From NCBI GenBank assembly GCA_025823825.1, contig GCA_025823825.1_4720.1: DNA of 64,000 nucleotides. One strand, written 5' to 3'. This DNA comes from a phage. The first letter of the stretch is position 1. The number at the start of each line of letters is the position of its first letter. The notes under the pieces were generated by a model. That model was not told the origin of the DNA. It did no database searches and worked only from the letters and a program-made list of their open reading frames with translations. This document shows positions 7,283 through 36,791 of the stretch, piece by piece. The translations under genes were made by a program, and so were the position numbers.

Positions 7283-7306
7283 CACGTAAGTAATATAGCC
7301 GTGAAA
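7283..7306 (-). promoter_or_regulatory. promoter-like motif (TATATTAC-containing), copy 1
   Basis: Plus strand CACGTAAGTAATATAGCCGTGAAA; minus strand TTTCACGGCTATATTACTTACGTG, 42 nt upstream of start codon at 7241. Confidence 0.5.
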
Positions 7307-7385
7307 GGATTTGTGTTGGCCCGTTTCGATGCCCATCGTATTTTATGGATTGTCGAATGACGTCATTTTAAGGGACATCCCCGGC

Positions 7386-7419
7386 CTCCTCCCCAGGAAA
7401 GGTGTGGGGAGGAGTTTTT
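7386..7419 (+). terminator. stem-loop plus T5 (intrinsic terminator-like)
   Basis: CCTCCTCCCC / GGGGAGGAG stem followed by TTTTT, just upstream of helicase start. Confidence 0.45.
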
Positions 7420-7449
7420 ATCATACATTCTATTAAATCGAGCGCGATT

Positions 7450-9531
7450 ATGTTGGATAGAATCAATCGTCTAATGAACCGAATAACGGTTAAAAATCAG
7501 AGTAACAATACCGTGCATATCGGGGGTATCGATGCCTGGCGTCTTTCAGATGACATTCAGCGAATATGGGGTACCTCCCGATTTATGAAACATATGTTTC
7601 GTAATTTCTCTTCTAGTGGACTCAGCCTCCACAACTTTTACCTCCCCGATTTCGTTTATATTCTCGAGACGATCATCGAAGCAAAGAATACCCGCAGTAA
7701 CAAACGCATGCTGAAACACCTTATTGAGGTACTGCTACAGGAAACCTGGTTGCAAAATACCACAATCGAGCAACCTGCAATCCTCGATAAAGCACGCATG
7801 AACAAAATGCTAACGCTCTCTTTGTTCGATTATCAAGATGAGTTTATCGACATCTATAACCGTAACGTACCTAAATACCGACTGAAAGGATACGTGTGTG
7901 CGATGGGTGCTGGTGCGGGTAAAACAATCACCGCACTGGCATTAAGCTCCGCAATGAACGTCGATGTATTTGTGGTCTGCTGTCCTAAGAACACCATGCG
8001 TTCAGCATGGCAATCCGATGTAAACAAAGCCATCGTTGACCCTGCAACAGAAACCGCGTTCTGGTCAGATACGATGCCACCATCACAGCTGCAGAAAAGC
8101 GATAAGTACTATTTTCTGCATTATGAATCGATGGGTTTATTAAACGATGTAATGATCAAGCATAAACGCACAGCGAAGCGCGTGTTGATCGTGGTTGATG
8201 AAAGCCATAACTTCAACGACAAGAACAGTCAACGTTCCCAACGACTGGTTGATCTCGTACAGACGATGCGTCAGACCATGAATGCGGATGTGCACGTCTT
8301 GTTTATGTCAGGTACACCTGTTAAACAAATGGGTTCTGAGATGATCCCATGTTTAGGTTGTATCGACCCGATGTTCCAAGGACAGGTGGTCGATAGCTTC
8401 AAAGCGATTTACGGTTTAACCAGCAGTCGCGCTAACGATATCCTCAGACATCGTCTTGGGTTCATGATGCATGTCGTACCTAAAGAGGCTTACCGTAAAA
8501 CCCGTCCGGAAGTTCAGGATGTTTACGTGAAGCTCCCTAACGGTAGCGATTATACCATCTCAAGTATCCGCGACGACATGGCGATATTTGTACGCGATCG
8601 GGCGAAGTATTACAAGGATAACTGGGGACACTACAGAAAGATTTTTGATGACGCCTTGGACTACTATCGTAAGACTATTCGTACCGACGGAGAACGTAAA
8701 GAGCTATCTCGATACGAATCGATTGTTGCTCGTTTCCAGAAAGGTTACGACCCCGTCAGAGACAAAGAAGATGCGATGTTCTGCAACGCGTTTGAAAAAC
8801 GTTCCATCATGCCGGTTCTTCCTTCTGATTTAAGGATTGCTTTCAAAGACGCTAAGAGTGTCATCAAGTACGTTGGGTTGAAAATTCAGGGTGAGGCGTT
8901 GGCCCGTGTTCTCGGTGCAGCCCGCATTCGGTGTCATGTCGATATGGTGGAGTACATCGACTTCGAAGGGTATATCAACAACGCTGAAGCCAAGGTGTTG
9001 ATCTTCACGTCGTACGTTCAGGTGGTTGAGCGTGTCGACAACATGCTTCGTGATGCGGGTTTCTTACCGGAACCCATTTACGGGAAGACCAACAAAAACA
9101 TCAACCAAATACTTGCTCGTTTACGCGACGATCCCGACAGCGGCCCCGCTATCGCAACATTTGATAGCTTAGCTGAAGGGGTTCCGATGTTGATGTGTAA
9201 CGTGGGTCTCTTCTTGAACAACCCATGGCGTTCATCCGATGAAATCCAAGCCATCAGCCGTCTCGATCGTGTAGGGCAAACGCAACCGGTTCGGATTTAT
9301 CGTTTCATGTTAGATACGGGAAGCGAGGGTAACGTTTCTACACGTAGCCACGAAATCATGGAGTTAAGTCGGCAGCTTGTTGAAGAAATCACGGGTGTCA
9401 AATACGTGGTGAACAAGCAAGACGATGTTAACTTGCAAGAAACGTTGGCGATGGAAGGATACGATCAATACGTTACCGTAAACACCACGGAATACGATAT
9501 TAAACCACGACCTGCGTTCTTGGAATGGTGA
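7450..9531 (+). CDS. SF2 (SNF2/DExH-like) helicase
   Basis: Walker A GAGAGKT and DExH box VVDESHNF; track start 7402 is a GTG inside a terminator hairpin, so ATG 7450 (MLDRINRL) is preferred. Confidence 0.7.
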   Translation: MLDRINRLMNRITVKNQSNNTVHIGGIDAWRLSDDIQRIWGTSRFMKHMFRNFSSSGLSLHNFYLPDFVYILETIIEAKNTRSNKRMLKHLIEVLLQETWLQNTTIEQPAILDKARMNKMLTLSLFDYQDEFIDIYNRNVPKYRLKGYVCAMGAGAGKTITALALSSAMNVDVFVVCCPKNTMRSAWQSDVNKAIVDPATETAFWSDTMPPSQLQKSDKYYFLHYESMGLLNDVMIKHKRTAKRVLIVVDESHNFNDKNSQRSQRLVDLVQTMRQTMNADVHVLFMSGTPVKQMGSEMIPCLGCIDPMFQGQVVDSFKAIYGLTSSRANDILRHRLGFMMHVVPKEAYRKTRPEVQDVYVKLPNGSDYTISSIRDDMAIFVRDRAKYYKDNWGHYRKIFDDALDYYRKTIRTDGERKELSRYESIVARFQKGYDPVRDKEDAMFCNAFEKRSIMPVLPSDLRIAFKDAKSVIKYVGLKIQGEALARVLGAARIRCHVDMVEYIDFEGYINNAEAKVLIFTSYVQVVERVDNMLRDAGFLPEPIYGKTNKNINQILARLRDDPDSGPAIATFDSLAEGVPMLMCNVGLFLNNPWRSSDEIQAISRLDRVGQTQPVRIYRFMLDTGSEGNVSTRSHEIMELSRQLVEEITGVKYVVNKQDDVNLQETLAMEGYDQYVTVNTTEYDIKPRPAFLEW

Positions 9532-9537
9532 TTAAGA

Positions 9538-9575
9538 AGCCCTGCCGTCAAGCAGGGCTTTATGCTGCGTTTGTT
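9538..9575 (+). terminator. intrinsic terminator-like hairpin after helicase gene
   Basis: AGCCCTGC-CGTCAA-GCAGGGCT followed by T-rich run. Confidence 0.5.
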
Positions 9576-9626
9576 GCAAGATCGTATGACGTATATGCGT
9601 TGTACTTATTTAAAAAGGCAGAATAA

Positions 9627-11081
9627 ATGAAACTCAAACAAAGCTGGAAAGACGAACTTCTCGCGTTAGTAAACAACAAAAACAGTTTACAGCTGACATT
9701 AGACGACGTAAAATTTGAACTAACTGAACCGGTAAGCGAAGTGCCCGGAACAGTCGTCGTTACGATCAAACCGAACGATGATAGCCGTTACTTTAACGAG
9801 CAGTCTCTGACCTACATCCGTCGAGACATCGCTAAAAACTTCACCGGGATCCCGTTACGTGTTATCGTTAAAAATGATACCGTCGTAAGGGATATCATCA
9901 ATACGATTGCTGAACGTTACGGATTGGTATTTGACACAACCGTTGACTTCCTCGAATCAGAGCTGAATAAGCAGATTACGTTCGAAGACACCGGTATTAA
10001 AGACATTACGGTTCCGGTTGCAAACACGTCTTATGTTTGGGCTGGTAATCTTCAGTTCAATATCGCTAACGATACGTTAAGCTTGATTACGATCATCAAG
10101 GAAACCAATCTTACGAATCTGGTTTATCTGGATGGCGTTGAAGCTGACACAACCGGATCGTTATTATTAGCAACGGCCTCGATTATCGACGATAACGGAA
10201 ATACCGAAACAACTGAAGGTGTCCTTGATGCCGAGTACTTCCAGAATGTCCTGAATGTCATGGTTCGTTATGGTGATATTACCAGCGAACAAATGCAACA
10301 AGCAATGCAGACAATTAACCAAAACGAAGACGTTCGTGAAGTGGAGGTTAAGTCATACGGCGACTCTGAGCTGTTGGTAACCACAAAGAAAGATTGGGCT
10401 ATCGGTAACCTTAAGGGCGCTATGGCAGTTGTTCGCAACGCTCAACCGAAACCAATTCAGTACATTCTCAAAACGAATGGCGGCTCCGTTACACTAGCAT
10501 TGGACGGTTGGACAAATATTTCCATCGATTGGGGTGATGGGAATAAAGCAACATTACCAGGCGGACAAACTCGCGGATTCCACGAATACAGTGACGGTAC
10601 AGAACGTACGATTGTAGCTACTGGTGTCCTCTCAAACCCTGAAGCACCAACACAGACACAAACCATCAGCGGCGATAACATCACTGAAATCGTTGACTGG
10701 AACAACGGATTACCGCAGGCTGTACAATTAACGGGATTAACCAGTTTGATTAAGGTTCCCGATTATATCCCGTCATACTGGACAACGTTGGAAAGTTTGT
10801 TCGAGAGCTGCTCATCGATAAACGACGTAAACATCACGAAATGGAATACCGGTAACGTCACATCAATGAAGAATTTGTTCTTTGGCTGTAACGTCTTCAA
10901 CCAACCGATCATCGTATGGGATGTTACCCATGTAACAAATATCGACAATATGTTCTCGGGATGTTCGGCGTTCAACCAGGATCTAAGGATGTGGTCATTC
11001 CCAGCGGATACTTCCCGCAACAACTACGATAACGGTGCTACAGCCTGGCGGTCAGAGTATCGTCCAAGCTTCGATTTGTAA
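9627..11081 (+). CDS. DUF285 (BspA-like) repeat protein, possible virion or adhesion protein
   Basis: C-terminal repeats FFGCNVFNQPIIVWDVTHVTNIDNMFSGCSAFNQDLRMW match the DUF285 repeat pattern. Confidence 0.5.
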   Translation: MKLKQSWKDELLALVNNKNSLQLTLDDVKFELTEPVSEVPGTVVVTIKPNDDSRYFNEQSLTYIRRDIAKNFTGIPLRVIVKNDTVVRDIINTIAERYGLVFDTTVDFLESELNKQITFEDTGIKDITVPVANTSYVWAGNLQFNIANDTLSLITIIKETNLTNLVYLDGVEADTTGSLLLATASIIDDNGNTETTEGVLDAEYFQNVLNVMVRYGDITSEQMQQAMQTINQNEDVREVEVKSYGDSELLVTTKKDWAIGNLKGAMAVVRNAQPKPIQYILKTNGGSVTLALDGWTNISIDWGDGNKATLPGGQTRGFHEYSDGTERTIVATGVLSNPEAPTQTQTISGDNITEIVDWNNGLPQAVQLTGLTSLIKVPDYIPSYWTTLESLFESCSSINDVNITKWNTGNVTSMKNLFFGCNVFNQPIIVWDVTHVTNIDNMFSGCSAFNQDLRMWSFPADTSRNNYDNGATAWRSEYRPSFDL

Positions 11082-11096
11082 AAAAAAAAAAAAAAA
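11080..11096. repeat. A17 homopolymer (T17 on minus strand)
   Basis: 17 consecutive A overlapping the TAA stop of the DUF285 gene. Confidence 0.9.
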
Positions 11097-11108
11097 TAGT
11101 TAGCATAT

Positions 11109-11146
11109 CTTCCTCCCTACCCATAACGGGCGGGGAGGAAGGTTTT
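11109..11146. terminator. bidirectional terminator-like hairpin
   Basis: CTTCCTCCCTACCC / GGGCGGGGAGGAAGG stem with TTTT on the plus side and the T17 run on the minus side, between convergent genes. Confidence 0.55.
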
Positions 11147-11159
11147 ATGGCGTTATAGC

Positions 11160-11498
11160 TTAGAACCAGAGTTCTTTCATGAGGTAGGCTTCCATATCGT
11201 AGATAAGCCACGCATCGGGGATTTCTAAAGGATCGTCTTCGGTTAAGGTCAGCATGTGCAGGGCGAACGCACGCTTGATATCTTCCAACAGCTTATCATC
11301 ACCGTAATCCTCGGGTAGTTTACGGTCAACCAGCTGGGTTTGTTTATAGACGTCGCGGAACGCTTCAGGGCTGTGTTTGTCCATCGGGAATTGTTCAGCA
11401 GCCTGAACCATCGTCAACGTCCAGCTTACAACATTGTAACGCTCACCGTTAATTTCACTGAACTGATCATCGATTAAACAGATTTGTTGTACGTTCAT
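11160..11498 (-). CDS. hypothetical acidic protein
   Basis: 112-aa ORF at end of a minus-strand operon. Confidence 0.5.
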   Translation of the reverse strand: MNVQQICLIDDQFSEINGERYNVVSWTLTMVQAAEQFPMDKHSPEAFRDVYKQTQLVDRKLPEDYGDDKLLEDIKRAFALHMLTLTEDDPLEIPDAWLIYDMEAYLMKELWF

Positions 11499-12388
11499 TC
11501 ATTTTCTCCATTCTTATCTTGGTCGCAATCACACTCTTCGACGTCTTTCTTACTTAAACGTAAGACACCTAGTGCAGCATGCTTGAGTTCTTGCAAAGCG
11601 CTTTTCAGCTGACCTTCTTCATCGAAATCAAAATACTTCTCGTTGTAGCTTAATGCCGGAATCATATTTACGAGAGGTTCGATGGCGGGCATCAGCATTT
11701 CAATGACGACCTTAGGATCGACAAAACGTTCAAACCCTTCAGGAAGTTTGCTCGCTACAACCTTATCGTTCTTGATGTAGAATTTGTTCTTGAATAGATC
11801 GTCAAGAATAGCATTCTCTTCATCCGTACGTTTTGCGTGAGGACGATCGATCATCTGCACAAACACACCACTCAACGCTTCAGGCAAAGTCGGATTTTCG
11901 CGAAGATAAGTTCCGGCCGGAATTTCAATGTCGATCTTCGTCCACTCAACAACCTGATGGTCTCGCGTATAGATGACGTCAACTTCCCATGCCAGACCAT
12001 CAGCGCTTTCTACGGTGTAACGTGTTTTCGCCTGGCCTTCAGGAGCCATACGTTCGATCGCATCAAACATCTCGACTGGGATTTCGACTTCGCTTTCCGT
12101 TGCATCGCCTGGACCGCGATACACCTTCGTGGTCATGATGTATTTCGGTTCTTCGTTATCGATCTGTATAGCTCGTGCTCGTACTTGACCTTTCACACCA
12201 CCAACGGCCGTGTTATCAAACAACCATTGATGTTGCACCATATGTTCGATTTTTGATGCGACTTGACGAAGACGTTCAACACCGTCTTCGGCCAGTTTAC
12301 CAAAGAAGACCAGCTCACGTTCCTGCTGTGTCTCACCACTTAACATCATTAAATTGGCGATTTGTTTCACGCCTCTTACTTTTGACAT
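11495..12388 (-). CDS. hypothetical protein
   Basis: 297-aa ORF, 4-nt overlap with downstream gene. Confidence 0.5.
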   Translation of the reverse strand: MSKVRGVKQIANLMMLSGETQQERELVFFGKLAEDGVERLRQVASKIEHMVQHQWLFDNTAVGGVKGQVRARAIQIDNEEPKYIMTTKVYRGPGDATESEVEIPVEMFDAIERMAPEGQAKTRYTVESADGLAWEVDVIYTRDHQVVEWTKIDIEIPAGTYLRENPTLPEALSGVFVQMIDRPHAKRTDEENAILDDLFKNKFYIKNDKVVASKLPEGFERFVDPKVVIEMLMPAIEPLVNMIPALSYNEKYFDFDEEGQLKSALQELKHAALGVLRLSKKDVEECDCDQDKNGENE

Positions 12389-12456
12389 ACATGCTCCGGT
12401 TATAAGGGCCTGCTTCGAGGCCCTTCATTGATTTTTGATTCCACCAAACGCTATCG

Positions 12457-14031
12457 TTACAATTCAAAATCTTCATCGATAACACGCTGGGTAAGCACTT
12501 TGTCGCTGAAGAACTCCACCTTGCGCTGATGGTATTTACGGTGCGCTTCGATAGAAGTACATACCAGATACCAGAACGTTGGCGTCATTCCTTCAAACTT
12601 TCCTTTCAGCTGACGCAGTCGTCCCAACACCTGAATGTTACCGGTTCGTGACCCCATCGCTAATGTCATGAACGTCATCACCAAGTCAGGAAGGTCGATA
12701 CCTGTACCTGCCGATTTCACCGTTGTAACGCTAATATCGTTATCCAGCAAGACCATGAAGTCTTCTTCAGCAGTATAAGGACCGATTTCTAACTCAGGGA
12801 TACGTTCACTGAGATAATGCGACAACGACTTACACATATCGACGGTTGCACAATACACCAGCATCTTCATACCTTCCTGATACTGGTTCATGAAACCCTT
12901 GATAATAACGGTATAGATGAAGTTAAAATACGCGAGTTTGAGTTGCTTGTTCTTCATGATAGACTGTTCGAATATCGTGTGCGAATAAGCTCCACCAAAC
13001 CCTTTGTATCTGACTTTATCTGTACTGCGTAGTCGGTACGTTACCGCATTTACCGCAATGTATTTCTTGTATTCGCCTTTCGCATAACGGGCTTCTTTCG
13101 GATACATCAAATACAGCATCTGTTCGATAAACGGATCATCGGATACCGCTGTTGCCGACAGATAAATGATTTCCGGAATATTGGCGTAACACTTGACCTT
13201 AAACAAGAAATGCAATGCTTCGTGACACTCGTCATGAATCAGCAAACCTATGCCGGTCTTTTCCCAAAACTCAGCGGGATGAAAGGCATATGGCGCAACG
13301 CAGTTATTCTTCTCGTAGTCCGCAATATAACGTTGGAACATGTTCAAGGAGAACAATGCGATTTTGAAGTCGAGTTCACCTTGTTCAACCAAGGTTTGAA
13401 ACTCCAACATACTGTAACGAGGAATGTCGGGATGCGGTGGATCCTCCTTAGCGTTCCCGCGTATCTCGATAACGTCCCCTGGTTCCATCCCGAAGAAGTT
13501 CAGCAGTGAGCTTCGCCAACCTGGCATGTATCTCGGCGACAGAATGATACCCGTCCGTACACCGCGTCGGAAGGTGATCTCCTGCGACATGGCCGTTTTT
13601 CCTGACCCCGTTTGAGCGGTGTTTAGGCTCATTCTGAAGGGGGTATCCTTACCCCCGTCCATGTACTCCAACCATTCTTGCTGATCTTGACGCCATGGAA
13701 ACTTCCATTTCTTTACGAACTCCACTTCTTTACCTGGTACCGGATCGTGATAGACGATTTCCAACCACTCTTTTCGTATCCCTCGGGAAAAGATAAAATC
13801 CAAAAACGATTTCAACTGTTCACGGAGTAAGTATACCTCGCTATAATCGCTTCTTGCCGCGGCATACGTGTTTATGGTATCGGTAACCATTCTCCGTGTA
13901 CGAGGGTCACGCCGTTTCCTCAGATGCAAACAACGGTCTCGAAGGTAATGGCCGATAAGATGGGCAAATCGAAGTCCGTATCCGCTCAGCCTCATGCCGT
14001 GCGAGAAGACGTCGATACGAGCTAACTTCAT
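12457..14031 (-). CDS. SF2 DEAD/DEAH-box helicase-like ATPase
   Basis: Walker A TGSGKT and DEAH-like HDECHE; ATGA start/stop overlap with upstream beta-prime-C gene. Confidence 0.6.
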   Translation of the reverse strand: MKLARIDVFSHGMRLSGYGLRFAHLIGHYLRDRCLHLRKRRDPRTRRMVTDTINTYAAARSDYSEVYLLREQLKSFLDFIFSRGIRKEWLEIVYHDPVPGKEVEFVKKWKFPWRQDQQEWLEYMDGGKDTPFRMSLNTAQTGSGKTAMSQEITFRRGVRTGIILSPRYMPGWRSSLLNFFGMEPGDVIEIRGNAKEDPPHPDIPRYSMLEFQTLVEQGELDFKIALFSLNMFQRYIADYEKNNCVAPYAFHPAEFWEKTGIGLLIHDECHEALHFLFKVKCYANIPEIIYLSATAVSDDPFIEQMLYLMYPKEARYAKGEYKKYIAVNAVTYRLRSTDKVRYKGFGGAYSHTIFEQSIMKNKQLKLAYFNFIYTVIIKGFMNQYQEGMKMLVYCATVDMCKSLSHYLSERIPELEIGPYTAEEDFMVLLDNDISVTTVKSAGTGIDLPDLVMTFMTLAMGSRTGNIQVLGRLRQLKGKFEGMTPTFWYLVCTSIEAHRKYHQRKVEFFSDKVLTQRVIDEDFEL

Positions 14032-16034
14032 AACGTGATTACATCCTCCGGTTTAGGTTCTTTACGCGGTAACAGCATGTAGTCGATCGGATGATCCGGC
14101 TTCATGGTTGGGATATAACTGTTCGGGTTTTGGAACGCATCCAGCTGCTCTTGGTGAGCGAACTTCATACTCAAGGAGCGCATGTTCATGTTCTTCTTGA
14201 AGGTACTGAAGTATCGTGTTGTTCCCTGTTTCGGCATGCGATAATCTTTCGTGTGCGGTGAACGAATCATGCTGGCGTAGAGAATAACATCGAGATGCGA
14301 AAGGTTCATTCGCAGACGCTGGGCACACAGACGATGCCAATAGTACAGCACGTTTGCAACTTCTTCCGGTGTTGCTTCGTCTTCCGAAAGGAATCCGGCA
14401 CTGAAAGAACCTTTCCCGAATTTGAATTCACGTTCGATTTCTTTTGCGTATTCCATCATGTTTTTGTGGATTAACGGCATCTGGAATAACGTACGTGAAT
14501 TGTCCCAATGTTTCAAGTCGAAAATCACAATCCCGTCAGACGTCACTTCCCAGCTATGGCGTTTAAGATAACGGATAAACGCTTTACTCGGTACAACAGG
14601 ACGTCCACAGAAATCGAAATTGACTTTGAGCTTACGATAGCTTTCATCTTTCCTGTCGTAAATCTCCATATCGCAAAGCGTCATGTTAAACAAGCGTTGC
14701 GGTATCAGCGAACTGATTTCTTCCGCTTCGGCTACGTCGTACAACATGTTCGCAAGACCTAACTTCATCTTAATCAGCACGTGTTTACCTTTCAGCTCAC
14801 GTGCGAGTTTGATGTCGTTCATGTTCTGGCTATAGCGAAGGATATGTTGATATTCCGGTGGGATTGGTGCTGTGGATACCGTTGACGAACCATCGTGGTG
14901 TTTGGTAGAAAGAATGTTCTGCGTCACCTGTTGCGAACAGGTACGCGCTGCGCCATCGCCGACATTATCAGTCAATGCGAAGTTATGACTTAATTCACCG
15001 TAACACGTTGTACATACCCCAGCAGGATCGGGATGATGACAATAGTTAACGGAGCGCATGCGTACCGTCGTGCCGATCAATTCTTTCATGTGTGGTTGTA
15101 TCGCTACCAACGAACCGTCATCACGAATAATGAATCGACCATGGAAGCCACGCAGGTCGGTCTCGTCGCGGATTGGCATCGGGATGGTCTCTTTACTACC
15201 ACAATCACCAGGATGGAGTCGTTGTACAACCGCTGTCGCTATCTGAAGTTCACGACCGAAATATTCAGACTTTTTAATCTGCTCTTTGTTGAACAGCAAC
15301 GATTTTGCCGCAGAACGACTTTCTTTCAAGCTGTCGGGAAGAGAGATCAAACCGGCTGCGTATGACCGCATTACTGGATCACGGAATATCTCGGAGTTAA
15401 TATCGGTCAAGAATCCACGCATCCCAATACACTGCAGCACCTGTCCAATCGAAACGTGTTCGGTTCTTACCGCACGTGCGATAGGGTTTGCATGTAACGT
15501 TTTATCGGTGCTCAGTACCTTTGTCAGTTTCTTGTATGCGCTTTCGATACCTTCACGGGTGGGTTCCGCTTCGGCGATGATTTTCTTAACTTCGGGATGT
15601 ACGGTAATCTGATAAAAATCGTCCGCGCAAATCGTTGTTACGTATTCCTCCAACGCATACGTAAAGAAGTTATATACGTTGTTGAACATATCGAACAGTG
15701 CTTTCCAGAGAACCTCACGATTCTCTTGTGGGTAAGCATACATGCATTGACGATACGCTGCGCTTTGCAACGCAACCGACGAACCAGCAGTAAACTTGCG
15801 TTTATCGACCAGGTTCTCTTTTGTCAATGGTGTCTCAGGATACATGCGATGCACAGACCAGTGCATGTAACTAAAGAAAATGCGTCGCGCACGCAATTCA
15901 TGAACGCCATCGTCCATCTCGATATATACACGGTCATTAGGCTGTGCCCACTCGAACACCTCATCAACCGGCCAATGCATAAGCTCGCGTGCCCTCACAC
16001 GACGTTTCGTGGTGGTCGTCTGTGTTATAGTCAT
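14028..16034 (-). CDS. multisubunit RNA polymerase beta-prime subunit, C-terminal piece
   Basis: RMRSVNYCHHPDPAGVCTTCYGELSH aligns with bacterial beta-prime [21 protein letters not shown] downstream of the bridge helix; trigger-loop-like TQNILSTKHHDGS. Confidence 0.6.
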   Translation of the reverse strand: MTITQTTTTKRRVRARELMHWPVDEVFEWAQPNDRVYIEMDDGVHELRARRIFFSYMHWSVHRMYPETPLTKENLVDKRKFTAGSSVALQSAAYRQCMYAYPQENREVLWKALFDMFNNVYNFFTYALEEYVTTICADDFYQITVHPEVKKIIAEAEPTREGIESAYKKLTKVLSTDKTLHANPIARAVRTEHVSIGQVLQCIGMRGFLTDINSEIFRDPVMRSYAAGLISLPDSLKESRSAAKSLLFNKEQIKKSEYFGRELQIATAVVQRLHPGDCGSKETIPMPIRDETDLRGFHGRFIIRDDGSLVAIQPHMKELIGTTVRMRSVNYCHHPDPAGVCTTCYGELSHNFALTDNVGDGAARTCSQQVTQNILSTKHHDGSSTVSTAPIPPEYQHILRYSQNMNDIKLARELKGKHVLIKMKLGLANMLYDVAEAEEISSLIPQRLFNMTLCDMEIYDRKDESYRKLKVNFDFCGRPVVPSKAFIRYLKRHSWEVTSDGIVIFDLKHWDNSRTLFQMPLIHKNMMEYAKEIEREFKFGKGSFSAGFLSEDEATPEEVANVLYYWHRLCAQRLRMNLSHLDVILYASMIRSPHTKDYRMPKQGTTRYFSTFKKNMNMRSLSMKFAHQEQLDAFQNPNSYIPTMKPDHPIDYMLLPRKEPKPEDVITL

Positions 16035-16179
16035 TATTGCTTTCCGATTTAAATGGTTTTATCATACGGTTTACCAAATCCGTTGGACTTTACTATCGTT
16101 GTGATAGCATCGGGAATCCCTTCCCTTAGGTTATGTAGGTGTTAATATATCTCCACTGCTGACCTTTATGTCGGCAGCA

Positions 16180-16665: not shown

Positions 16666-16778
16666 AATCTCATTTCCTCTTATACGTTAGGATAGATGAC
16701 ATGTTGGATATACGTTGCCTTTGCATATATTGCTTTATTTCCGTCAGAAATAACGGAAAATAAAAACAACGACATAGT

Positions 16779-16809
16779 TCCCTCCCACCTCCACATGGGA
16801 GAGGGAGGG
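16779..16809 (-). terminator. stem-loop plus T-rich tract
   Basis: CCCTCCCACCTCC / GGGAGAGGGAGGG with T-rich sequence 3' on minus strand. Confidence 0.4.
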
Positions 16810-16822
16810 CTATTCGTGTTTA

Positions 16823-18086: not shown

Positions 18087-18097
18087 CGTATACCTCG

Positions 18098-23640: not shown

Positions 23641-25229
23641 TTATTTTTTTCCTCTTAAATTTACTACGTGTTCATTTAATCGAACAACTAATTGCACAAG
23701 TTGCTGACGGATATCTGCTGGACAAAGCATCAATCCTTTACGATCAGCTGGGACTTTCTCAAGGATTTCCGGGCCTGCTGCTGAAACATCCCAGTCCCAT
23801 TCACAAAACGCATCGGCCACCATGTTAATACCGACAACCGGTAAAGTTGTACGTTCATCTTCATACATGGCGTGTGGATACAATTTATTGACAGTAATGA
23901 TCTCCTGTGGTTTTAATTGGTGGATAATCTGATAAACATCGTCGCGTTTAACCTGGATACCTACGGTCAGCGCTGCCAGTTGAGGAAAACCCCAATGGTC
24001 TAATAAGCAAGCTGCAATCGCTAACGCTTTTGCTTGATGCACGGCTTCAATCGGTGCCAGACTTCTCGCCGGAAGATGGCTATCAAGCAACCATTGTGCC
24101 AGTGCTCGGCATCCACGGTTGATTGGTTTTAACTCAACGCTGTCATCGTGCTTAGCGTACGTGTATCCGTCGTAACGTTTTGCGATACGCGCATACATGT
24201 CTTCAACTTTACCGTAAGGTGCCGTTTCGTCGACGTCGTGTAACACACGTTCCATCTGGGTAAGATACGCGATGTCAAGAATGAGTACACGCGGTGAACG
24301 TTTATCTTTCACCATCAACGCATCAATCACGCCTTGACTGTCTTCATCTTGCGCGTTCCCTCGTGGGGTTTTCTCACGAATCGGTCCGCTGAAACGTCGT
24401 TCCGTACAAAGGTTATTCACATAGCTAAAGATCAGTGTTACCAGATGCGTACAACTCACCAACACCCCATCTTTAACGACAGGCTGTACGGCTTGGTCCA
24501 AGTCGCGTACGGCGAGACGGCGGACGATGGCTTGTGAACGCAACCAGCCGGGCACTTTCTCCGTCGACATGTAATCCACGGTCATCGACAGCGTGATCTT
24601 TTTATCACCCGTCTGTGCGCGGATATAGTCTTCCAGTCGGTCGTAAGCGGCGATATCATGAATGCGTGTTTTATACATCAACGACATAGCCACTTCTTCT
24701 TTACGGACTGTCCCGTACGTTTTCCCTGCGTCAATCAGAAACTCTGCCCAAATCGGCACCATCAGACGGACATAGATCGCTAACGCTGTTAACTCAACGT
24801 AATCATTTCGTAAATAGGTTTTCTCGGGTATATCGTCCTCACCTAATGTTGTTTTCATGTCCGGTGGTAATTTTACCCAACCTGGGGTATTACACAACGC
24901 CAGAATCTCTTCATACACAACCGGTTTGTAAATCTCACCAACAGCGCGACTCAACTCCTCCATTTGTTGTTGTGGAGCAATGTAGTTATCCATCGCTTCA
25001 CGTGCTTTAACGAACCCTTCGAAGATGTCGTCAATTCGACGTGGGTTCTTTTGTTCTATCCAGGCGAGATACTTGTTAATCTCCCGCATCTGATTGCTAG
25101 CCATATCCCCATCAATCTTGATGTAACCCTGGCCTGAAAATTCCACAGTACGTCCATCACGATGTTTGATGAGATAGTGATCCAGCTTTTCTTTTCCTTG
25201 CGTCGTAATGACGGGCACTATGTGCATAA
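23641..25229 (-). CDS. hypothetical protein
   Basis: Track start 25362 lacks an RBS; ATG at 25229 (MHIVPVITT) has AGAGG RBS. Confidence 0.55.
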
Positions 25230-25431
25230 CAACCTCTTTTCGCGGTTCCCTGTTAAAACGTCTTCTGTGACGTCTACCACAAAGGTAATATAAGCGTGAA
25301 TAATTTTGGATTCCGGCTGAGTTATCGCTCAGCATGCAAGGCATCCCGCCGAAGCGAGACACCTTGCACTAACGGAAAATATTCGCGTTACCTTCTGAAT
25401 CGAAGACTCAGAATGCGATGCTAAAGCATTA

Positions 25432-29423: not shown

Positions 29424-29436
29424 GAGGAACTCCTCT

Positions 29437-29910: not shown

Positions 29911-30005
29911 TTCATAGAGTGGTGGAAATTCGTAGAAAGTTACAAAAATAAAAAAGAATGGGCAGCCCCTCCCCACCCGAAGGTAGGGAGAGACCGCAAA
30001 TATAC

Positions 30006-30491
30006 TTAAACCAATGCTGCGATAACGTCGTTAACATTACGGCCTCGCAACTCTGCCGCTAAACGAATAACTTCATCCAGGGAACGGGTTGTACGAATCT
30101 TGGCCACTTTCCAATTTTCAGGATACTGTTCGAAGTTAAGCAACCAAGTCATTACCTTTGCTTGTTCCATACCGTTGAGTTTGATTGTCGTGCGCGGATT
30201 GGCTTTGAACCACTTCTTGCTCAGCTGCGCCATACGGCGAACAGGGTAAGCGTAAGCGCGAGTCCAGTCTTTGGACAGATTGTCGAGTAATTCACAGTAG
30301 CTGTTGTCGTAGTCTTTGTTGATACGACGTAATAACCAGTTGGCGGTCATCTGATAAAGTTTATCATCTTCACGTAACCGCATACCCGCTACTGCTAAAT
30401 AAATGATAAGACCTGCGCCCAGGATGAGAGACAGGATAAACAGGATTTGGGTTTCTTGTGCTAAAGTCATTTTACTATCCTCGGATTTCAT
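30006..30491 (-). CDS. membrane protein
   Basis: Hydrophobic segment ILFILSLILGAGLIIYLAVAG near N-terminus; promoter-like motif 66 nt upstream. Confidence 0.55.
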   Translation of the reverse strand: MKSEDSKMTLAQETQILFILSLILGAGLIIYLAVAGMRLREDDKLYQMTANWLLRRINKDYDNSYCELLDNLSKDWTRAYAYPVRRMAQLSKKWFKANPRTTIKLNGMEQAKVMTWLLNFEQYPENWKVAKIRTTRSLDEVIRLAAELRGRNVNDVIAALV

Positions 30492-30556
30492 TAGGATTTA
30501 ATTTCCAATATAAGGGCAATGTGATATGCCTTATACAGTCGATTGATGTTGTACAT

Positions 30557-30580
30557 CACCTAAGTAATATAGCCGTGAAA
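30557..30580 (-). promoter_or_regulatory. promoter-like motif, copy 2
   Basis: Plus strand CACCTAAGTAATATAGCCGTGAAA; 66 nt upstream of minus-strand start at 30491. Confidence 0.5.
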
Positions 30581-30589
30581 AATGTTGGA

Positions 30590-31387
30590 TTAACGTGTTC
30601 TCCTATCACGATGCGTATACGACTGAAGACCGATGTCCATATGCGGTAACGTCAGCGTCTGCCAGATCTGTCGTGCATAGCGATCGAGCGTATGATCGTC
30701 AGTAACACAATCGACGGGTTCGATGAGGTGAGTCGTATACTGGCTTTTCTCAGAGAAAGGTTCGATGTTAGCTGTATCTCCTAATCCGCTTTTCACCGTG
30801 AAGACAAGACGTGTGACTATCATCGCCTTATGTTGCTGTTCGTTATAACGAAGGCTGCGGTATACGGCATAGCTTCCTCCTTTTAGGCTTCGGGTATAAC
30901 GAAGGTCGGAGGTCGTCTCGGAAATCTGATACAGCATCCAGTCCAACGTATCGCGCCAGTACGCATCATCCACATCAGGAACTGTAATACCATATCGCGT
31001 AGGCAGCAGTTCTAAAAGCAATTTATAAAGTCCGCGACGCAAGCCATGCTCTTCTGTTTCCGATAAACCGTTTCCAACATAACGTGAAATACGCGTACGT
31101 AAATACGTACGGATGAACATATTCGCCATCAGTGTTTTCACTCTGCTACTTGTATCCTCAAAGCGATCAACGCTGAAACTCGTTTCAATCAGCCGTCCAT
31201 TAAAATACAATGCGGCAACATACATCGCATTACTGCTATCACGTTCAATGTTTAAACGACCGCAGATATTGGCTGCGTCGTTCATGGTAAATTCTAATTT
31301 ATCGTGTTCGATACGATAGATAATATCCTCTTGGGTTGCTAGGCTCGCAATACGACGATAGCCCGGAGAAGTACGTTTTACACTCAT
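30590..31387 (-). CDS. hypothetical protein
   Basis: ATG at 31387 (MSVKRTSPGYRR) with GAGGA RBS preferred over track start 31426. Confidence 0.5.
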   Translation of the reverse strand: MSVKRTSPGYRRIASLATQEDIIYRIEHDKLEFTMNDAANICGRLNIERDSSNAMYVAALYFNGRLIETSFSVDRFEDTSSRVKTLMANMFIRTYLRTRISRYVGNGLSETEEHGLRRGLYKLLLELLPTRYGITVPDVDDAYWRDTLDWMLYQISETTSDLRYTRSLKGGSYAVYRSLRYNEQQHKAMIVTRLVFTVKSGLGDTANIEPFSEKSQYTTHLIEPVDCVTDDHTLDRYARQIWQTLTLPHMDIGLQSYTHRDRRTR

Positions 31388-31469
31388 GATTGTCCTCGTT
31401 TTCAATTTTAAGATTGCATGCGGCATAAACCCTCCCCGCCTTGTGCAGGGAGGGTAGCCATTAAATGGA

Positions 31470-32108
31470 TTAACCTAATTTACCACCGGCGATGTTGGTG
31501 AAGTCTTCGCCGTCAGGAACTTGCAGTAGGATACGTGCCATGTCCCAGTTAGTTAATGTGATTGCTTTATCATCGATACTCAGTTCTGGTAGGTCGAGTT
31601 CATGATCATCAAACTCGTAGGAAATACTCCACGTTTCGTCTGTTTTAGGATCGGTTATCAACACACCGTCTGTTACACGCATGTAGTCCGGATGCAGTTC
31701 ATTACTGAATGTGCTGAACGGATCGGTGTAACATTCAGCATACCCCTCGATCTGCTGACGCTGTGCCTTCGTACGTAAATCAGGGCACGCCATGATCAGT
31801 TGTCGAGATATGCCGTTTGCAGCTCGGAAATCCTCCACGGTGTTACATGGCATAACCACATCGTCGTGGAAGATGTTCTCCGATTGTCTCAACAGCGTCT
31901 TACGGAGTTCAGCATAGTTTATCTGATTGAATGCATCAAACGTTGCTAACGATTCAGCGTAAAAATGCTTTACGTGTTCGCTTGCGCCGCCGAGACTATT
32001 CATCAACTTGTGCCCGTACTCCATGAAACTTTTATCGAGACCGGAGGACATTTCTCCGAACCTCAGTGCACGATAACTGTCTCGTCCACCTGTAAATATT
32101 TGCGCCAT
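31470..32108 (-). CDS. hypothetical protein
   Basis: 212-aa ORF with AAGGAGG RBS immediately after the beta-prime-N stop; N-terminal RFGEM-like string noted but not relied on. Confidence 0.5.
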   Translation of the reverse strand: MAQIFTGGRDSYRALRFGEMSSGLDKSFMEYGHKLMNSLGGASEHVKHFYAESLATFDAFNQINYAELRKTLLRQSENIFHDDVVMPCNTVEDFRAANGISRQLIMACPDLRTKAQRQQIEGYAECYTDPFSTFSNELHPDYMRVTDGVLITDPKTDETWSISYEFDDHELDLPELSIDDKAITLTNWDMARILLQVPDGEDFTNIAGGKLG

Positions 32109-32123
32109 TACAGGCGTCCTCCT

Positions 32124-32348
32124 TTAGCAATGGTTGTTAGTTGCTTCTATTTCGTCAAGATAAGGTTCTACGTCATCGCCCTCCACGAATTCGTTGAACC
32201 AGCAGTCAATGGTAGAAATAACCGGTGACTGGTGTTCACATTTCTTAGATACCTTAAAAGGTACGTTATTATCCATCATACCGAGTTCGGGTCGAAAACG
32301 CCCGAAATGTTTCGCAGTCCAAATGTCTGGGACGATATGGTTGTTCAT
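32124..32348 (-). CDS. beta-prime-N exon 4
   Basis: Begins AUG AAC AAC CAU AUC GUC CCA (MNNHIVP, ~ MAVHVP / MNLHVP after DFDGD); a stop 3 codons upstream of the track start 32363 rules out a simple upstream extension. Confidence 0.5.
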   Translation of the reverse strand: [74 protein letters not shown]

Positions 32349-34714
32349 CGTAGCGTTCAGCATGAGTCGCTACCTCATGCCCGCAGCTTTACCTGCAGCT
32401 TCCGGTGTTACCGGAATGTCCAGAATACATCTTATCCATATTCCAAATGGAACGTAGGACTTCCGCGCTGGATCTCGCTTGAGACCACGTATTCGTTGAA
32501 CGTTCTCCTGAACGGAGCTTCGCTGCTGATCGAACATTGTCATGTACGGTAGGCGTCCCCGAAGGGATTGTCATTGAAGCCGCGTACATCCGCTACCTTG
32601 TTTCTACCTTATCGGTTCCTCTTACGAGGCGTAGCGGCCTTAGCCCTTCCCAGCAATTCACGGAATCCAAGCTCTTCCTTTCGGAAGGCAGGGCCTATGA
32701 TTAAGCATCCCCGTCGCTGTTATCGACTATATCTTCATCCTCGTTGCGAGGAGTCTCCCGTTTTGGTCTGTGTTTAACAGAGCCTACTCTACTCGACATC
32801 GCGTCTTTCGATAGTCTGTGAGCACACATCTTAACGAACATTCGTGGATTCCTAAACAGGTGAACGTTCTTGTTGAGATGCTTCGCTGCGGATTATTCCC
32901 GTCCTACCTCTTTTACCCTACCCAGTTCATTACGCTGGCCCTCATCTGTGTCACCACGATGAGTTGGTGTGTAGTCCGATTACAGAAACTTCCCGTCAAT
33001 TAGAGAGTTTTAACTACGTTCCTGTTACCAGAAACCAGATCCCGACGGTATCAATAAATCAACGTAAGTTATTGATTTAATTGAAAAAACTGAAATCTGC
33101 ATTATCTTAATCTTCAGTATGGTTCGCTACTCCATACCCGTACGTCATGTACTGCTTACGTCTTTCACGTAAGAAGAGACTATATCTTTCACCCTCAGCA
33201 TTATCTGGTCGGGGCTCCCATTTCGGCGGTCAGATGACCGGTGGTTTCCCACGCCGCTTGGCCCTAACGCCCGTAAGCGATAGTCGTTGAGCGCATCTCC
33301 GTTCTGGAGACTTCGCTGCGGATTCCCCAATCCTTGCCGCTTTTACCATACCTGAATGATTAGTTCAGCCCCACGCTCTGTTCCCAGGCGTGGTTGGTGG
33401 ACAAGGCTCTAAGTAGGTTCCCGCATTAGAGAGTTCTGCGTGACAACATTTCTGCGTTACTGGGCCTAACGACCCTTTCAAGATCATCACGCTTAACCCG
33501 ATGGTGTTATCCTGCGGATCGCGTTTAACCTTGGTGATTTCAAGACATTGGTTACTGCTTCGGTCAAGTGATGGGTTTCGAACAAAGCCACACACAATCC
33601 CATCGAACGGTGTATCAGCAATAAGCTCATCGTGCAGCTCGCTCATCATTGGATGATAATTACGGACATGTTCCGCAACGAACGCACGTGCTGCTCTCGG
33701 TGAATAACCACGATGGAATAACTTGGATTGGATATGTTCTTTATTGGTTAAAGTAAATGGTGCGTATGGGAAATGCAGATGATAATAACGATGGTTCGCT
33801 GTTATCGAACTGATTACGGTACGCGTGGTGAATGGATGTAATGTACCTAATATGTTTTTACGTGTGATACCTTTCTTCTTACCAATGAACTCATCGAAAA
33901 TTGCTGCGTGGTATTGCAGTAGCTTCAATTGCACTTTCGCCATCCAGTTTTCTTTCTTTCTGGCGCTCAAAGGTGTTGTTGGGTGATAGATACTGTTCAA
34001 CGTACCAATAGCATCGATCGCACCTTCCATTTTGCTATCTGCATAACGACCGGTTGGCGTATTCTCGATAACGAACATCATGGCCGCAGGAAAGCTGATA
34101 TACTGGCTGAAGAACTTATCACGATGGATACGGATGAATTCTCGTAGCGTGTCAACTTTCTCCGTGTTCTTCGGTCCACGTAACGTAGGTCCTTTATACA
34201 AGATCTCCATTATGCGATCGAAGTTCTGTATAAAGCTATTTACGCCGCGACGTATCCCGAATACATCGAATTGCTGCTCCAGATAGTTCTTGAGTTCGAT
34301 GGGTCGTTTTACATTTGGACGGTAACTGGCATCAATGAGCCACGTCATCGTTTCAAAGCTTTTGATATTCAACTCGCTTGCCAGCACGAGATGGACCAAC
34401 GGGTTAATGAACGCATCAATTCCTTCAGGAACACGCGCCCAAACCGTCGAACGAATCTCCTGTTCTGCCGGGTAGGTCACGACCGTTTTACAGTTTGGAC
34501 ACACCGTGCCGAGTAGCTCACCACGATTGTAGAAACCACAACCACATTGTGGTGTGATATCCAACGTATCGCTGGAGTAAACACGGGTGATAAAACTGTT
34601 TAATTTCTTCTTCTCTTCGACGACTTTTGTATCGTAATCATTCAACAAAATCGGCGTAAAAGGAAGTTCTGCGAGCTGTCTATCGAAACTCACGATATCG
34701 AGCATGATGGCCAT
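32124..34714 (-). CDS. RNA polymerase beta-prime subunit, N-terminal piece, interrupted by three group I introns; predicted mRNA join 34714..33472, 33105..33093, 32716..32704, 32348..32124
   Basis: Zinc finger CGCGFYNRGELLGTVCPNC (CxC-x13-CxxC), RNPSLDR ~ [15 protein letters not shown] ~ IQLHPLVC. Unspliced ORF ends in junk without the catalytic motif; the join restores [21 protein letters not shown] in frame (1494 nt, 497 aa). Confidence 0.6.
32349..32703 (-). ncRNA. group I intron 3 (ORF-less, 355 nt, divergent P7)
   Basis: Third copy: GGUAGAAACAAGGUAGCGG, CAGCAGCGAAG, P7 5' strand GAAUA (32494..32490) with complementary 3' strand UAUUC (32427..32423), two P9-like hairpins, terminal G at 32349. 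Confidence 0.45.
32704..32716 (-). CDS. beta-prime-N micro-exon 3 (13 nt, CGACGGGGAUGCU)
   Basis: Completes F then encodes D-G-D-A; ends in U; a UAA follows in frame if unspliced. Confidence 0.45.
32717..33092 (-). ncRNA. group I intron 2 (ORF-less, 376 nt)
   Basis: Second copy of the same core: GGGUAGGGUAAAAGAGG...AAUCCGCAGCGAAG (32923..32881), CACAGACUAUCG with GACUA at 32816..32812, GAAGAUAUAGUCG (32736..32724), terminal G at 32717. Confidence 0.5.
33093..33105 (-). CDS. beta-prime-N micro-exon 2 (13 nt, AUAAUGCAGAUUU)
   Basis: With the preceding U encodes Y-N-A-D and first two bases of F; ends in U. Confidence 0.5.
33106..33471 (-). ncRNA. group I intron 1 (ORF-less, 366 nt)
   Basis: Tetrahymena-type core elements on the minus strand: GGUAUGGUAAAAGCGG...AAUCCGCAGCGAAGUC (33352..33311), P7 5' strand GACUA (33285..33281), J8/7-P7 3' strand AGAUAUAGUC (33187..33178), P9-like hairpins, terminal G at 33106. 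Confidence 0.6.
33472..34714 (-). CDS. beta-prime-N exon 1
   Basis: AGGAG RBS and ATG at 34714; exon ends ...AAA GGG U with U at 33472 as first base of the Tyr codon. Confidence 0.55.
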
Positions 34715-34756
34715 GGGGTATCTCCTACAAATGAAAAAGAACGTTAGGACGTATAA

Positions 34757-34780
34757 GGGAGGGAGGTTGCCCTCCCTCCC
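34757..34780 (-). terminator. GC-rich stem-loop between chimallin candidate and beta-prime-N
   Basis: GGGAGGGAGG-TTGC-CCTCCCTCCC perfect 10-bp stem; T-rich sequence follows after a short gap on the minus strand. Confidence 0.4.
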
Positions 34781-34806
34781 GTCAGATTACATCGAACGTT
34801 CTTCCA

Positions 34807-36702
34807 TTAGAACAGGTTGAATGCCCCACCCATGTTGTTAACGCCAACATTCGGACGATCGCTACGTGCGTAGATGTTACCGGAGATGTTACCCAGACCA
34901 CGAGCACGTGCTGCCATGTTACCACGAACAGCGGTACCTGCCAGATGCTGGATGTTCTCAGGACGGATGGTGAAGCCAGCATCAGCAGCAGCTTCGATCA
35001 GCGCCTGCAGTGCTAACGGATCGAAGTCGTAACGCATTGCCCAGCCGGTTTGTTCCCAGCTACCAGACAGAACACGATCGATGATTTCGTGACGAGCGAC
35101 AACACGCTGAGACATCGTCATATCGGTACGGTCGAAGCTGTCTTCCCAAGCTTCTACGGTATCCGGGTTAGTGATGTTCATCATGTACAGATCGTCCATA
35201 TCACGAATATCGTGACGGTGACCATCCTGGTGGTTGTAGTGACCCAGCGGGATACGGTTACCGGTAGCGTAGACCAGCGGTAAGCCGTATTGATATTTCT
35301 TGCTGAAGCAACCCAGGGTAACATCATCGAAGGCACGGTAGAGTGCTTTGTAACCTTCAGAGACTTCCCGAACATCAGCCTCAACATTACCCGTATAGAT
35401 CTTCTCAGCCGCCGGGATCATACGCAGCAGCCAGCTGTATTCGCCTTCTTCCGGTACGTCGATAGAAATCAGCAGGGACGGATACAGTACCTGTTGCAGG
35501 AACTTGTAAATCTGCTCATTGGTTTGAGTAGACAGATCCAGCGGTGCGGTAACTTCCGGATCCAGCACCATCGCCAGAGCACCCGGGTTATGCGGACCGA
35601 TACCACGAGCAGCGTTGCTGATTAAAGACTGCGCCCATGCCATGCCGCTGTTCAGCGTAGCGATGGTGCCAATCAGACCCAACACGAAAGTGTTCGGTGT
35701 GAACGCATCCAGCTCCAGCGGGTAAGCGCTGGTCATCACGTAACGCGGCTGGTATTGTACAGTCGGCGGTACCGGATAACCGTTAACCAGAACAGGGCCT
35801 TGGTTGAAGGTCGGGTTCTGCGGGCTGTAAGTCAGGTCAATGTAACCGGTGGTGGCGACCAGACGCTGTTGACTATCGTAATCGCTCATCGCTTGACGGA
35901 TGCGGTTAGAGATAGTTACAGTGATGTCAGAACGCACAGGGTTACCAACAATATCGCTGTCCTGCATACCGCTGGTGTTGTACTGAACGCTGCTGATTGG
36001 CTGATCGCTTGCCATCATGCCCAGGTTGAACTGCGGCAGACCCAGTTTATCACCGAGACGGATTTCGATTGCGGTCTGGATTGCGTTATCTGCAGCAGAC
36101 AGCAGGGTGGTCGCCAGATGCGCAGATTCAGCGGTGATTTCATTGGTCACCACAGCCAGACCAGCGATACGAGCAGTACCATTAGACTTACCGCCAATAG
36201 CTGCATACATTGCCGCCATGACTTCGTTGATGAACGTACCGTTCAGGTTATCAACCCAGGTACGCGGTACCAGAATGTTACCATGCGGACCTTGTTCTTC
36301 ACGACGCGGCAGCGGAGCCAAACCGGCAACCAGCGGAAGCACATAACCGAAGAAGTGGTTATGATCACCAACTTTTGCACCACTCATAACGACCAGGGTC
36401 GGATACGGTACGCTGTACTGGTTCGGGTCAACCGCAACAAAGATGAAGTCGTCTTTGAACTGGGTATCTTCCAGATATTTCTCCATCAGACGACGGAGAT
36501 TCAGTACCTGCTCGGAGCCGGTATTACGGCTGATACGACGGCTCAGTGTACGGTTGATCGTACGCATCGTATGAGTTACTTTAGGACGGTCGGCAAAATC
36601 TGCAGCGGTTTCCAGCGCCTCATCAGCACGTTGTGCGGTGCGGGTTTCAGCTGCACGAATTTCTACATTATCGTTACCGTTATTACGTACGTCTAAGCCC
36701 AT
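34807..36702 (-). CDS. chmA: candidate chimallin (phage-nucleus shell protein)
   Basis: 631-aa ORF with AAGAGGAA RBS directly upstream of beta-prime-N, as I recall for phiKZ gp54-gp55; size matches described chimallins; promoter-like motif 66 nt upstream. No sequence comparison possible here. Confidence 0.45.
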   Translation of the reverse strand: MGLDVRNNGNDNVEIRAAETRTAQRADEALETAADFADRPKVTHTMRTINRTLSRRISRNTGSEQVLNLRRLMEKYLEDTQFKDDFIFVAVDPNQYSVPYPTLVVMSGAKVGDHNHFFGYVLPLVAGLAPLPRREEQGPHGNILVPRTWVDNLNGTFINEVMAAMYAAIGGKSNGTARIAGLAVVTNEITAESAHLATTLLSAADNAIQTAIEIRLGDKLGLPQFNLGMMASDQPISSVQYNTSGMQDSDIVGNPVRSDITVTISNRIRQAMSDYDSQQRLVATTGYIDLTYSPQNPTFNQGPVLVNGYPVPPTVQYQPRYVMTSAYPLELDAFTPNTFVLGLIGTIATLNSGMAWAQSLISNAARGIGPHNPGALAMVLDPEVTAPLDLSTQTNEQIYKFLQQVLYPSLLISIDVPEEGEYSWLLRMIPAAEKIYTGNVEADVREVSEGYKALYRAFDDVTLGCFSKKYQYGLPLVYATGNRIPLGHYNHQDGHRHDIRDMDDLYMMNITNPDTVEAWEDSFDRTDMTMSQRVVARHEIIDRVLSGSWEQTGWAMRYDFDPLALQALIEAAADAGFTIRPENIQHLAGTAVRGNMAARARGLGNISGNIYARSDRPNVGVNNMGGAFNLF

Positions 36703-36767
36703 TTGGGATTCCTCTTTTCTTAAACTTTATTAAATGACGTCATTGAATCAGCTTCTACTCGCTCATT

Positions 36768-36791
36768 CACCTAGGTAATATAACCCTGAAA
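36768..36791 (-). promoter_or_regulatory. promoter-like motif, copy 3 (upstream of chimallin candidate)
   Basis: Plus strand CACCTAGGTAATATAACCCTGAAA; 66 nt upstream of minus-strand start at 36702. Confidence 0.5.

Follow-up and report, generated by a model that had tools for sequence, protein, structure and literature searches.

Five minus-strand sites in a 64,000-nt stretch of phage DNA (NCBI GenBank assembly GCA_025823825.1, contig GCA_025823825.1_4720.1; hereafter the window) are, with high probability, early promoters of a Goslar-like chimallivirus that are read by the virion RNA polymerase (vRNAP). The motif they share is non-random, specific in strand and position, and placed at the head of every early gene run in Escherichia phage vB_EcoM_Goslar, and it has the architecture of phiKZ early promoters. 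Goslar, a nucleus-forming jumbo phage of the Chimalliviridae, is 96–98% identical to the window, which is collinear with 135.5–200.2 kb of its genome; by this identity, the source phage is a Goslar-like chimallivirus, that is, an E. coli nucleus-forming jumbo phage near Goslar. In E. coli, Goslar is the model used to study both phage nucleus formation and the early-infection vesicle.

A sequence-only reading of the window had pointed to three near-identical minus-strand 24-mers, and all three lie exactly where it placed them: 7283–7306 (TTTCACGGCTATATTACTTACGTG), 30557–30580 (TTTCACGGCTATATTACTTAGGTG), and 36768–36791 (TTTCAGGGTTATATTACCTAGGTG). Their likeness exceeds chance: at up to three mismatches, the degenerate 24-mer occurs at these three places in the window and nowhere else, and none of 100 dinucleotide shuffles contains a match. 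The bare 8-mer at the center, TATATTAC, is not enriched in the window, either exactly (4 found, 2.4 expected) or at one mismatch (53 found, 57 expected); the signal therefore resides in the extended motif. The fourth exact copy of the 8-mer, at 25285–25292, has flanks that match the motif (ATTCACGCTTATATTACCTTTGTG), and an ATG follows it at a distance of 51 nt. With the weight matrices described below, the confident sites in the window number five: 7282–7306, 25277–25301, 30556–30580, 36767–36791, and 51429–51453. Each member of the original list of three was real, and the list was incomplete, as the second and fifth of these sites had been missed.

Genome-wide, a 25-nt position weight matrix (PWM) derived from the motif sites was applied to the assembled Goslar genome, in which 185001–187307 was represented by the window's own sequence. 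Twelve strong sites scored 27.6–37.8, the next best match reaching 15.4 and the maximum over 20 Markov-shuffled genomes 18.8; a matrix for the 17-nt core (YTAYATTACYTNNNTGA) added a thirteenth site at 187624, with a score of 22.4 against a shuffle maximum of 19.7. All 13 sites lie on the minus strand, upstream of minus-strand genes, and 12 of the 13 cores fall in the 7.06% of the genome that has no annotated coding sequence. The extended consensus across these sites is TTTCA(C/G)G-N2-TAYATTAC-YT-N3-TG-A, preceded by AATCCAACATT-like sequence or by an A-tract, TTGAAAAAAA, the latter at the chimallin, gp214, and gp200 sites. The −10-like element TAYATTAC is present at all 13 sites, as is the TG at the start spacing known from phiKZ; at 12 of them, TTTCA(C/G)G precedes the core by 2 nt (which places the TTTCA pentamer 4 nt upstream). 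Four of the window sites carry the core as TATATTAC and the fifth as TACATTAC, a variant found at 5 of the 13 Goslar sites (the strong sites of gp021, gp040, gp046/047, and gp075, and the core-only site of gp225). The distance from motif to start codon spans 25 to 205 nt.

Independent evidence comes from published expression data. Armbruster et al. (bioRxiv 10.1101/2023.09.20.558163) blocked the translation of chimallin, which arrests the Goslar genome in the early-infection (EPI) vesicle together with the injected vRNAP, and counted RNA-seq reads gene by gene in knockdown and control cells at 30 min; promoters are not mentioned in that study. We set their mean log2 fold changes against RefSeq gene coordinates. 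Goslar genes split cleanly into 145 early (still transcribed, all at −1.14 or above) and 102 late (all at −3.0 or below), and the minus strand encodes 141 of the 145 early genes. These 145 genes fall into nine contiguous runs, and a motif site is found at the upstream edge of every one (9/9; hypergeometric P = 8.8e-14), in front of gp004, gp021, gp040, gp046/047, gp075, gp159, gp225, gp214, and gp200. None of the 13 sites lies in front of a late gene. The other four sites are internal to long runs, at gp105, gp175, gp182, and gp246 (chimallin), and knockdown read density rises by ~1.4- to 7-fold across them. Genes directly behind a site have a mean log2 fold change of 1.03, against 0.44 for the other early genes (P = 2.7e-5). 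The enrichment upstream of early genes that the sequence-only reading implied is therefore present genome-wide in Goslar, and the motif accounts for the way in which the published early transcriptome is divided into blocks. Two step-ups in log2 fold change that have no motif, at gp183 and gp236, were considered as extra promoters and rejected: the raw knockdown read density shows no rise at either gene, and the steps stem from variation in the control sample, so that no extra promoter is needed.

These data also bear on which polymerase reads the sites. It is conceivable that the non-virion RNA polymerase (nvRNAP) does so, alone or additionally, which would make them middle rather than true early promoters: nvRNAP subunits are early products and could be present in chimallin-knockdown cells, an RNA-seq ratio cannot tell which enzyme produced an RNA, and phiKZ chimallin has a middle promoter too. 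We consider this improbable. The knockdown genome remains in the vesicle with vRNAP, and knockdown/control ratios are highest for the genes right behind the motif, which depend least on formation of the nucleus; dependence on nvRNAP would have the reverse effect. Further, the published phiKZ middle motif (TACT centered at −22, with an A-rich repeat before it) and late motif (TATG) differ from the element described here, which fits the class validated as early in phiKZ.

That class is well characterized. Early, vRNAP-dependent promoters have been located at 28–32 sites in phiKZ by primer extension, dRNA-seq, and ONT-cappable-seq, and both reviews and primary papers describe them as an AT-rich element near −10 with a T-rich part upstream, assigning them to the virion polymerase. 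The sequence-only reading had taken TATATTAC for the early-promoter element of phiKZ-like phages, and the literature lists it as that of phiKZ; its further suggestion that vRNAP reads promoters of this class is supported by the same reviews. In the portion of the ONT-cappable-seq table of Putzeys et al. drawn on here, the seven phiKZ early promoters all read TATAT(T/C)A(C/T)-N5-TG and end at the mapped start. Within that portion, the Goslar matrix gives six of the seven (2.7–19.9) higher scores than any of the 38 middle, late, or unassigned promoters (maximum −0.7), and it places the G at the motif end 0–1 nt from the mapped start in all seven. As phiKZ transcription starts at this G, the starts in the window are predicted by homology at G7283, G25278, G30557, G36768, and G51430, and the three 24-mers originally noticed terminate exactly at the predicted start bases.

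The position of the start is equally relevant to the suggestion that the motif is not a DNA promoter at all, but a leader element acting at the RNA level in mRNA export, stability, or translation. Such a role would suit an element that is always upstream of a gene and on the coding strand. It is scarcely credible, however, given that the mapped phiKZ start is at the 3′ end of the motif, nearly all of which would therefore be untranscribed from its own promoter; the wide range of distances to the start codon also speaks against it, as does folding of the five window sites, which revealed neither a stable fold nor a shared one (z-scores −1.0 to +1.3).

Recognition by the host is the remaining alternative, and a very unlikely one: TATATT, one base off TATAAT, could act as a sigma-70 −10 box, with E. 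coli RNA polymerase transcribing right after injection. Although TTGAAA is found upstream of some sites, this block lies ~13 nt from the −10-like box rather than the expected 16–18 nt, and a scan for the sigma-70 consensus (−35 and −10 hexamers with 16–18 bp spacing) calls none of the five window sites. Sigma-70 promoters do not have the conserved positions seen here, namely the C at the core end, the upstream TTTCACG block, and the invariant TG 5 nt downstream; the motif is also used in phages of Pseudomonas, Erwinia, and Klebsiella; and infection of the phiKZ type is rifampicin-resistant according to the literature. Sigma-70-like sites are, moreover, depleted across the window. In three 20-kb scans covering positions 1–60000, matches were below those in shuffled sequence (26 vs 35.9±7.4, 18 vs 31.4±5.0, and 22 vs 37.1±6.7), which suggests that the window avoids host-type promoters.

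Several points weigh against reading the sites as vRNAP-dependent early promoters. The expression test rests on Goslar and not on the window's own phage; its data are a knockdown/control ratio at 30 min rather than a direct early time point; and the strandedness of the RNA-seq library is unstated. The start bases in the window and in Goslar are predictions from homology to phiKZ. At the fifth window site, the upstream half of the motif is missing, and one Goslar site falls within the small annotated open reading frame (ORF) gp047. Finally, recognition of the motif by vRNAP would rest on arguments from timing and host-independence made for phiKZ and AR9. Transcription without host RNA polymerase or new protein synthesis has been demonstrated for those two phages; for Goslar, transcription from the vesicle-arrested genome has been demonstrated. 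The gp047 site (NC_048170.1 49717–49741, outside the window) is a strong one inside a 62-codon annotation, and its predicted start is downstream of the gp047 ATG; gp047 may therefore be mis-annotated or have a shorter frame.

The mechanism we favor can be stated in four steps. A multisubunit virion RNA polymerase would enter the early-infection vesicle by injection, together with the DNA, as the literature has established for Goslar and phiKZ; Goslar virions contain the vRNAP subunits gp78, gp196, gp205, gp207, and gp210 by mass spectrometry. Sequence conservation suggests that this enzyme would then bind double-stranded promoter DNA through TAYATTAC at approximately −14 to −7, TTTCA(C/G)G at approximately −23 to −17, and, where one is present, an A-tract at approximately −33 to −25. 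By homology to the mapped phiKZ starts, RNA would begin at the invariant G, 7 nt after the core (T−1 G+1). Minus-strand units of ~1 to 41 kb would be transcribed, a step for which the published Goslar RNA-seq offers indirect evidence. In the window, the five promoters would drive an operon headed by an HD-domain protein gene, an operon from the gp175 homologue to nvRNAP genes, the gp182 homologue, chimallin with the downstream nvRNAP beta′ gene, and a run comprising the gp225 homologue, PhuZ, and DNA polymerase. The nvRNAP genes are inside the window, 3′ of motif sites; those for the five vRNAP subunits are located outside it.

Comparison with known systems places the sites closest to phiKZ, with which they share the core TATATTAC, the N5-T-G+1 spacing, the upstream T-rich block and A-tract, and the placement before early operons that include chimallin, the chimallin promoters of the two phages aligning over ~40 nt. 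In contrast to phiKZ, most Goslar-type sites have TTTCACG(G/A)C in place of the A-tract and TTGAGAT, and 5 of 13 use the TACATTAC core; Goslar also has only 13 sites, on one strand, for 145 genes in runs of up to 41 kb, with predicted starts where phiKZ has mapped ones. Early promoters have also been predicted for 201phi2-1, OBP, EL, and N1M2, which belong to other phage genera and infect other hosts. The present motif matches the published 201phi2-1 consensus, TTTRARR_BTATATTACDWHDGTG, in length, spacing, and core, but individual sites break its degenerate codes at two to four positions in the flanks. The TTTYARRYAKATATTAT-type strings of OBP and Klebsiella phage N1M2 have the same spacing, TTTCA followed by 5 nt and ATATTA, but their core ends in T (ATATTAT) where the core here ends in C. 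The promoters of AR9 and PBS2 resemble those of the window phage in that an injected multisubunit polymerase reads an AT-rich −10-like element, ATATTA(T/C), and starts at a G beyond the next six bases; the AR9 paper gives the AR9 early promoters as AAATATATATTAT-(6N)-G+1 and notes that phiKZ and phiR1-37 transcripts begin six bases past the element. AR9 differs in its uracil-containing DNA, the absence of a phage nucleus, and its other flanking conservation. Coliphage N4 offers a conceptual parallel, with an injected virion polymerase and phage-specific early promoters. The N4 virion RNA polymerase is a single-subunit enzyme that recognizes a DNA hairpin; unlike N4 promoters, the five window sites form no hairpin when folded.

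The element is also conserved ahead of chimallin. In phiKZ, PhiPA3, RAY, and Eowyn it precedes the chimallin gene about as far from the start codon as in the window, and an alignment of these four promoters with that of the window shows invariant TATAT-AC, an invariant TG start, and most of the A-tract, which is missing from the Eowyn site. The chimallin proteins of these four phages are only 21–25% identical to the window protein; the conservation of the promoter alongside proteins that are about a quarter identical indicates that the polymerase–promoter pair is highly constrained. In phiKZ, the early motif stands at the primary start of the chimallin gene, PHIKZ054, which also has a middle promoter. 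Its experimentally mapped early promoter, P028, is near-identical in sequence to that of the window, and the portion of the Putzeys et al. table used here gives the mapped start as 45583. G36768 in the window is homologous to this mapped start (G/A), and the predicted chimallin leader is 66 nt in both phages.

The individual window sites, all on the minus strand, can be related to their genes and to the Goslar counterparts. Site 1 (7282–7306; PWM 37.8), upstream of an HD-domain phosphohydrolase gene (gp159 homologue, 6555–7241, minus strand), is predicted to start transcription at G7283 and would head an early run of ~34.5 kb. In the Goslar knockdown, raw reads increase from 12 over the 2082 nt of gp160 to 321 over the 687 nt of gp159, an ~80-fold rise in density. 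On the plus strand, 7402–11081 contains late genes for a DEAD/DEAH helicase and a leucine-rich-repeat protein; their Goslar homologues, gp160 and gp161, have log2 fold changes of about −5.4, and in the window the pair is flanked by two minus-strand early runs. The 160-nt divergent region 7242–7401 must therefore hold back-to-back early and late promoters.

Site 2 (25277–25301; ATTCACGCTTATATTACCTTTGTGG; PWM 27.9) lies between the homologues of gp176 (ChmC) and gp175, the latter (23641–25227, minus strand, ATG at 25227) being the first gene 3′ of it; the predicted start G25278 would give a 51-nt leader. Across the corresponding position in Goslar, log2 fold change goes from −0.48 (gp176) to +0.92 (gp175), and knockdown read density increases ~2-fold. 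A GC-rich hairpin without a T-run (GCAAGGTGTCTCGCTTCGGCGGGATGCCTTGC, 25330–25365, minus strand) stands between the ChmC homologue and this promoter and may serve in termination or in RNA processing.

Site 3 (30556–30580; PWM 37.8; predicted start G30557) precedes the gp182 homologue, a hypothetical protein whose Goslar counterpart has the highest log2 fold change of its region (+1.26). The longest frame of this gene (30006–30491, minus strand) begins at ATG 30491. Its true start is likely the second ATG, at 30470, 21 nt further downstream, because this is the start annotated in Goslar and is preceded by GAGGA, whereas ATG 30491 has a poor ribosome-binding site. The range of 42–66 nt between motif and start codon proposed by the sequence-only reading consequently needs amendment; it holds for the first in-frame ATGs (42, 66, and 66 nt from the 3′ end of the motif), but the likelier ATG of this second gene is 87 nt away. 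Directly after the gene lies a strong intrinsic terminator, with a 16-bp stem and then a T-run (29962–29997, minus strand), so that gp182 would form a largely monocistronic early unit; matching this terminator-like hairpin, Goslar knockdown read density drops ~7-fold from gp182 to gp181.

Site 4, the putative early promoter of the chimallin gene (chmA), spans 36767–36803 with its upstream A-tract TTGAAAAAAAT (PWM 35.8), and the predicted start G36768 would leave the 66-nt leader. The gene behind it (34807–36702, minus strand) encodes a protein 98.9% identical to the Goslar nuclear shell protein gp246, as anticipated when it was singled out as a chimallin candidate, and knockdown read density in Goslar rises ~7-fold from gp244/gp245 to gp246. 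A sequence in the legend to Extended Data Fig. 4 of Armbruster et al., beginning 91 nt upstream of the chimallin ATG, was considered as a possible record of the start; it is a display window and offers no usable coordinate. A perfect 12-nt palindrome, AATGACGTCATT, is present at 36733–36744 (minus strand) within the predicted leader, ~30 nt before the start codon.

Site 5 (51429–51453; predicted start G51430), with a conserved core, CTACATTACCTTCCTGA, and a divergent upstream half (core PWM 22.4, shuffle maximum 19.7), is the first promoter of an early run of ~41 kb that includes the PhuZ, DNA polymerase, chimallin, and nvRNAP genes; the first gene 3′ of it is the gp225 homologue (50854–51405, minus strand). 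Its Goslar counterpart marks a sharp boundary: gp224 is late (log2 fold change −5.3, 6 raw knockdown reads over 1239 nt), whereas gp225 is at +0.97 with 428 reads over 525 nt, an ~170-fold rise in density. A candidate degenerate sixth site (16122–16146, minus strand; ATTAACACCTACATAACCTAAGGGA) falls between genes, ahead of the gp165 homologue, which encodes the nvRNAP beta subunit. In Goslar, knockdown read density is ~1.7-fold higher in gp165 than in gp166. We do not count this candidate as a confident site because its PWM scores, 15.4 and 16.2, are inside the shuffled-sequence range.

Other features of the window deserve brief description. A second strong terminator-like hairpin within the long early run, at 40347–40374 (minus strand), precedes the DNA polymerase gene (gp244 homologue); like that at 29962–29997, it coincides with a fall in Goslar knockdown density, the downstream genes still being at ~15–50% of the upstream level. 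Relative to Goslar, the window is missing 1065 bp, including the HNH homing endonuclease gene gp186 (junction at 32718/32720), and carries a 368-bp insertion at 33106–33473, beside the annotated group I intron of the nvRNAP beta′ gene. Rfam returns two tandem full-length Intron_gpI matches here (minus strand), 32717–33083 at 46.9 bits (E = 2.7e-10) and 33156–33492 at 32 bits (E = 7.6e-6), both below the gathering score of 50. It is possible that a pair of ORF-less group I introns in the window takes the place of the single intron and endonuclease of Goslar, and a 449-aa ORF at 33365–34714 probably extends into intron sequence.

The motif is thus a correct and useful annotation of a promoter kind already mapped in phiKZ, not a new kind of element, and chimallin is already known as an early-promoter gene in that phage. 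In the literature searched, we found no publication that gives a Goslar early-promoter consensus or site list. A more speculative and, in our view, doubtful proposal is that the 145-gene early program of Goslar-type phages is driven by only 13 one-strand promoters in two sequence subclasses, one ancestral and one lineage-specific. The first may be a family-wide 'A-tract + TT(C/G)AG' type, which at least four of the five genera compared have kept before chimallin, and the second a 'TTTCACGRC' type specific to the lineage.

The identification of these sites has several consequences. Starts predicted to a single base provide defined templates for in vitro tests of the injected polymerase, and the motif aids the correction of gene starts, such as those of gp182 and gp047; compact, phage-specific promoters of this kind are also of interest for engineering. 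To produce early runs of 35–41 kb, the virion polymerase would have to pass terminator-like hairpins inside them. If the two subclasses differ in timing, strength, or injected factors, the chimallin-type promoter would represent an immediate-early tier that secures synthesis of the nuclear shell.

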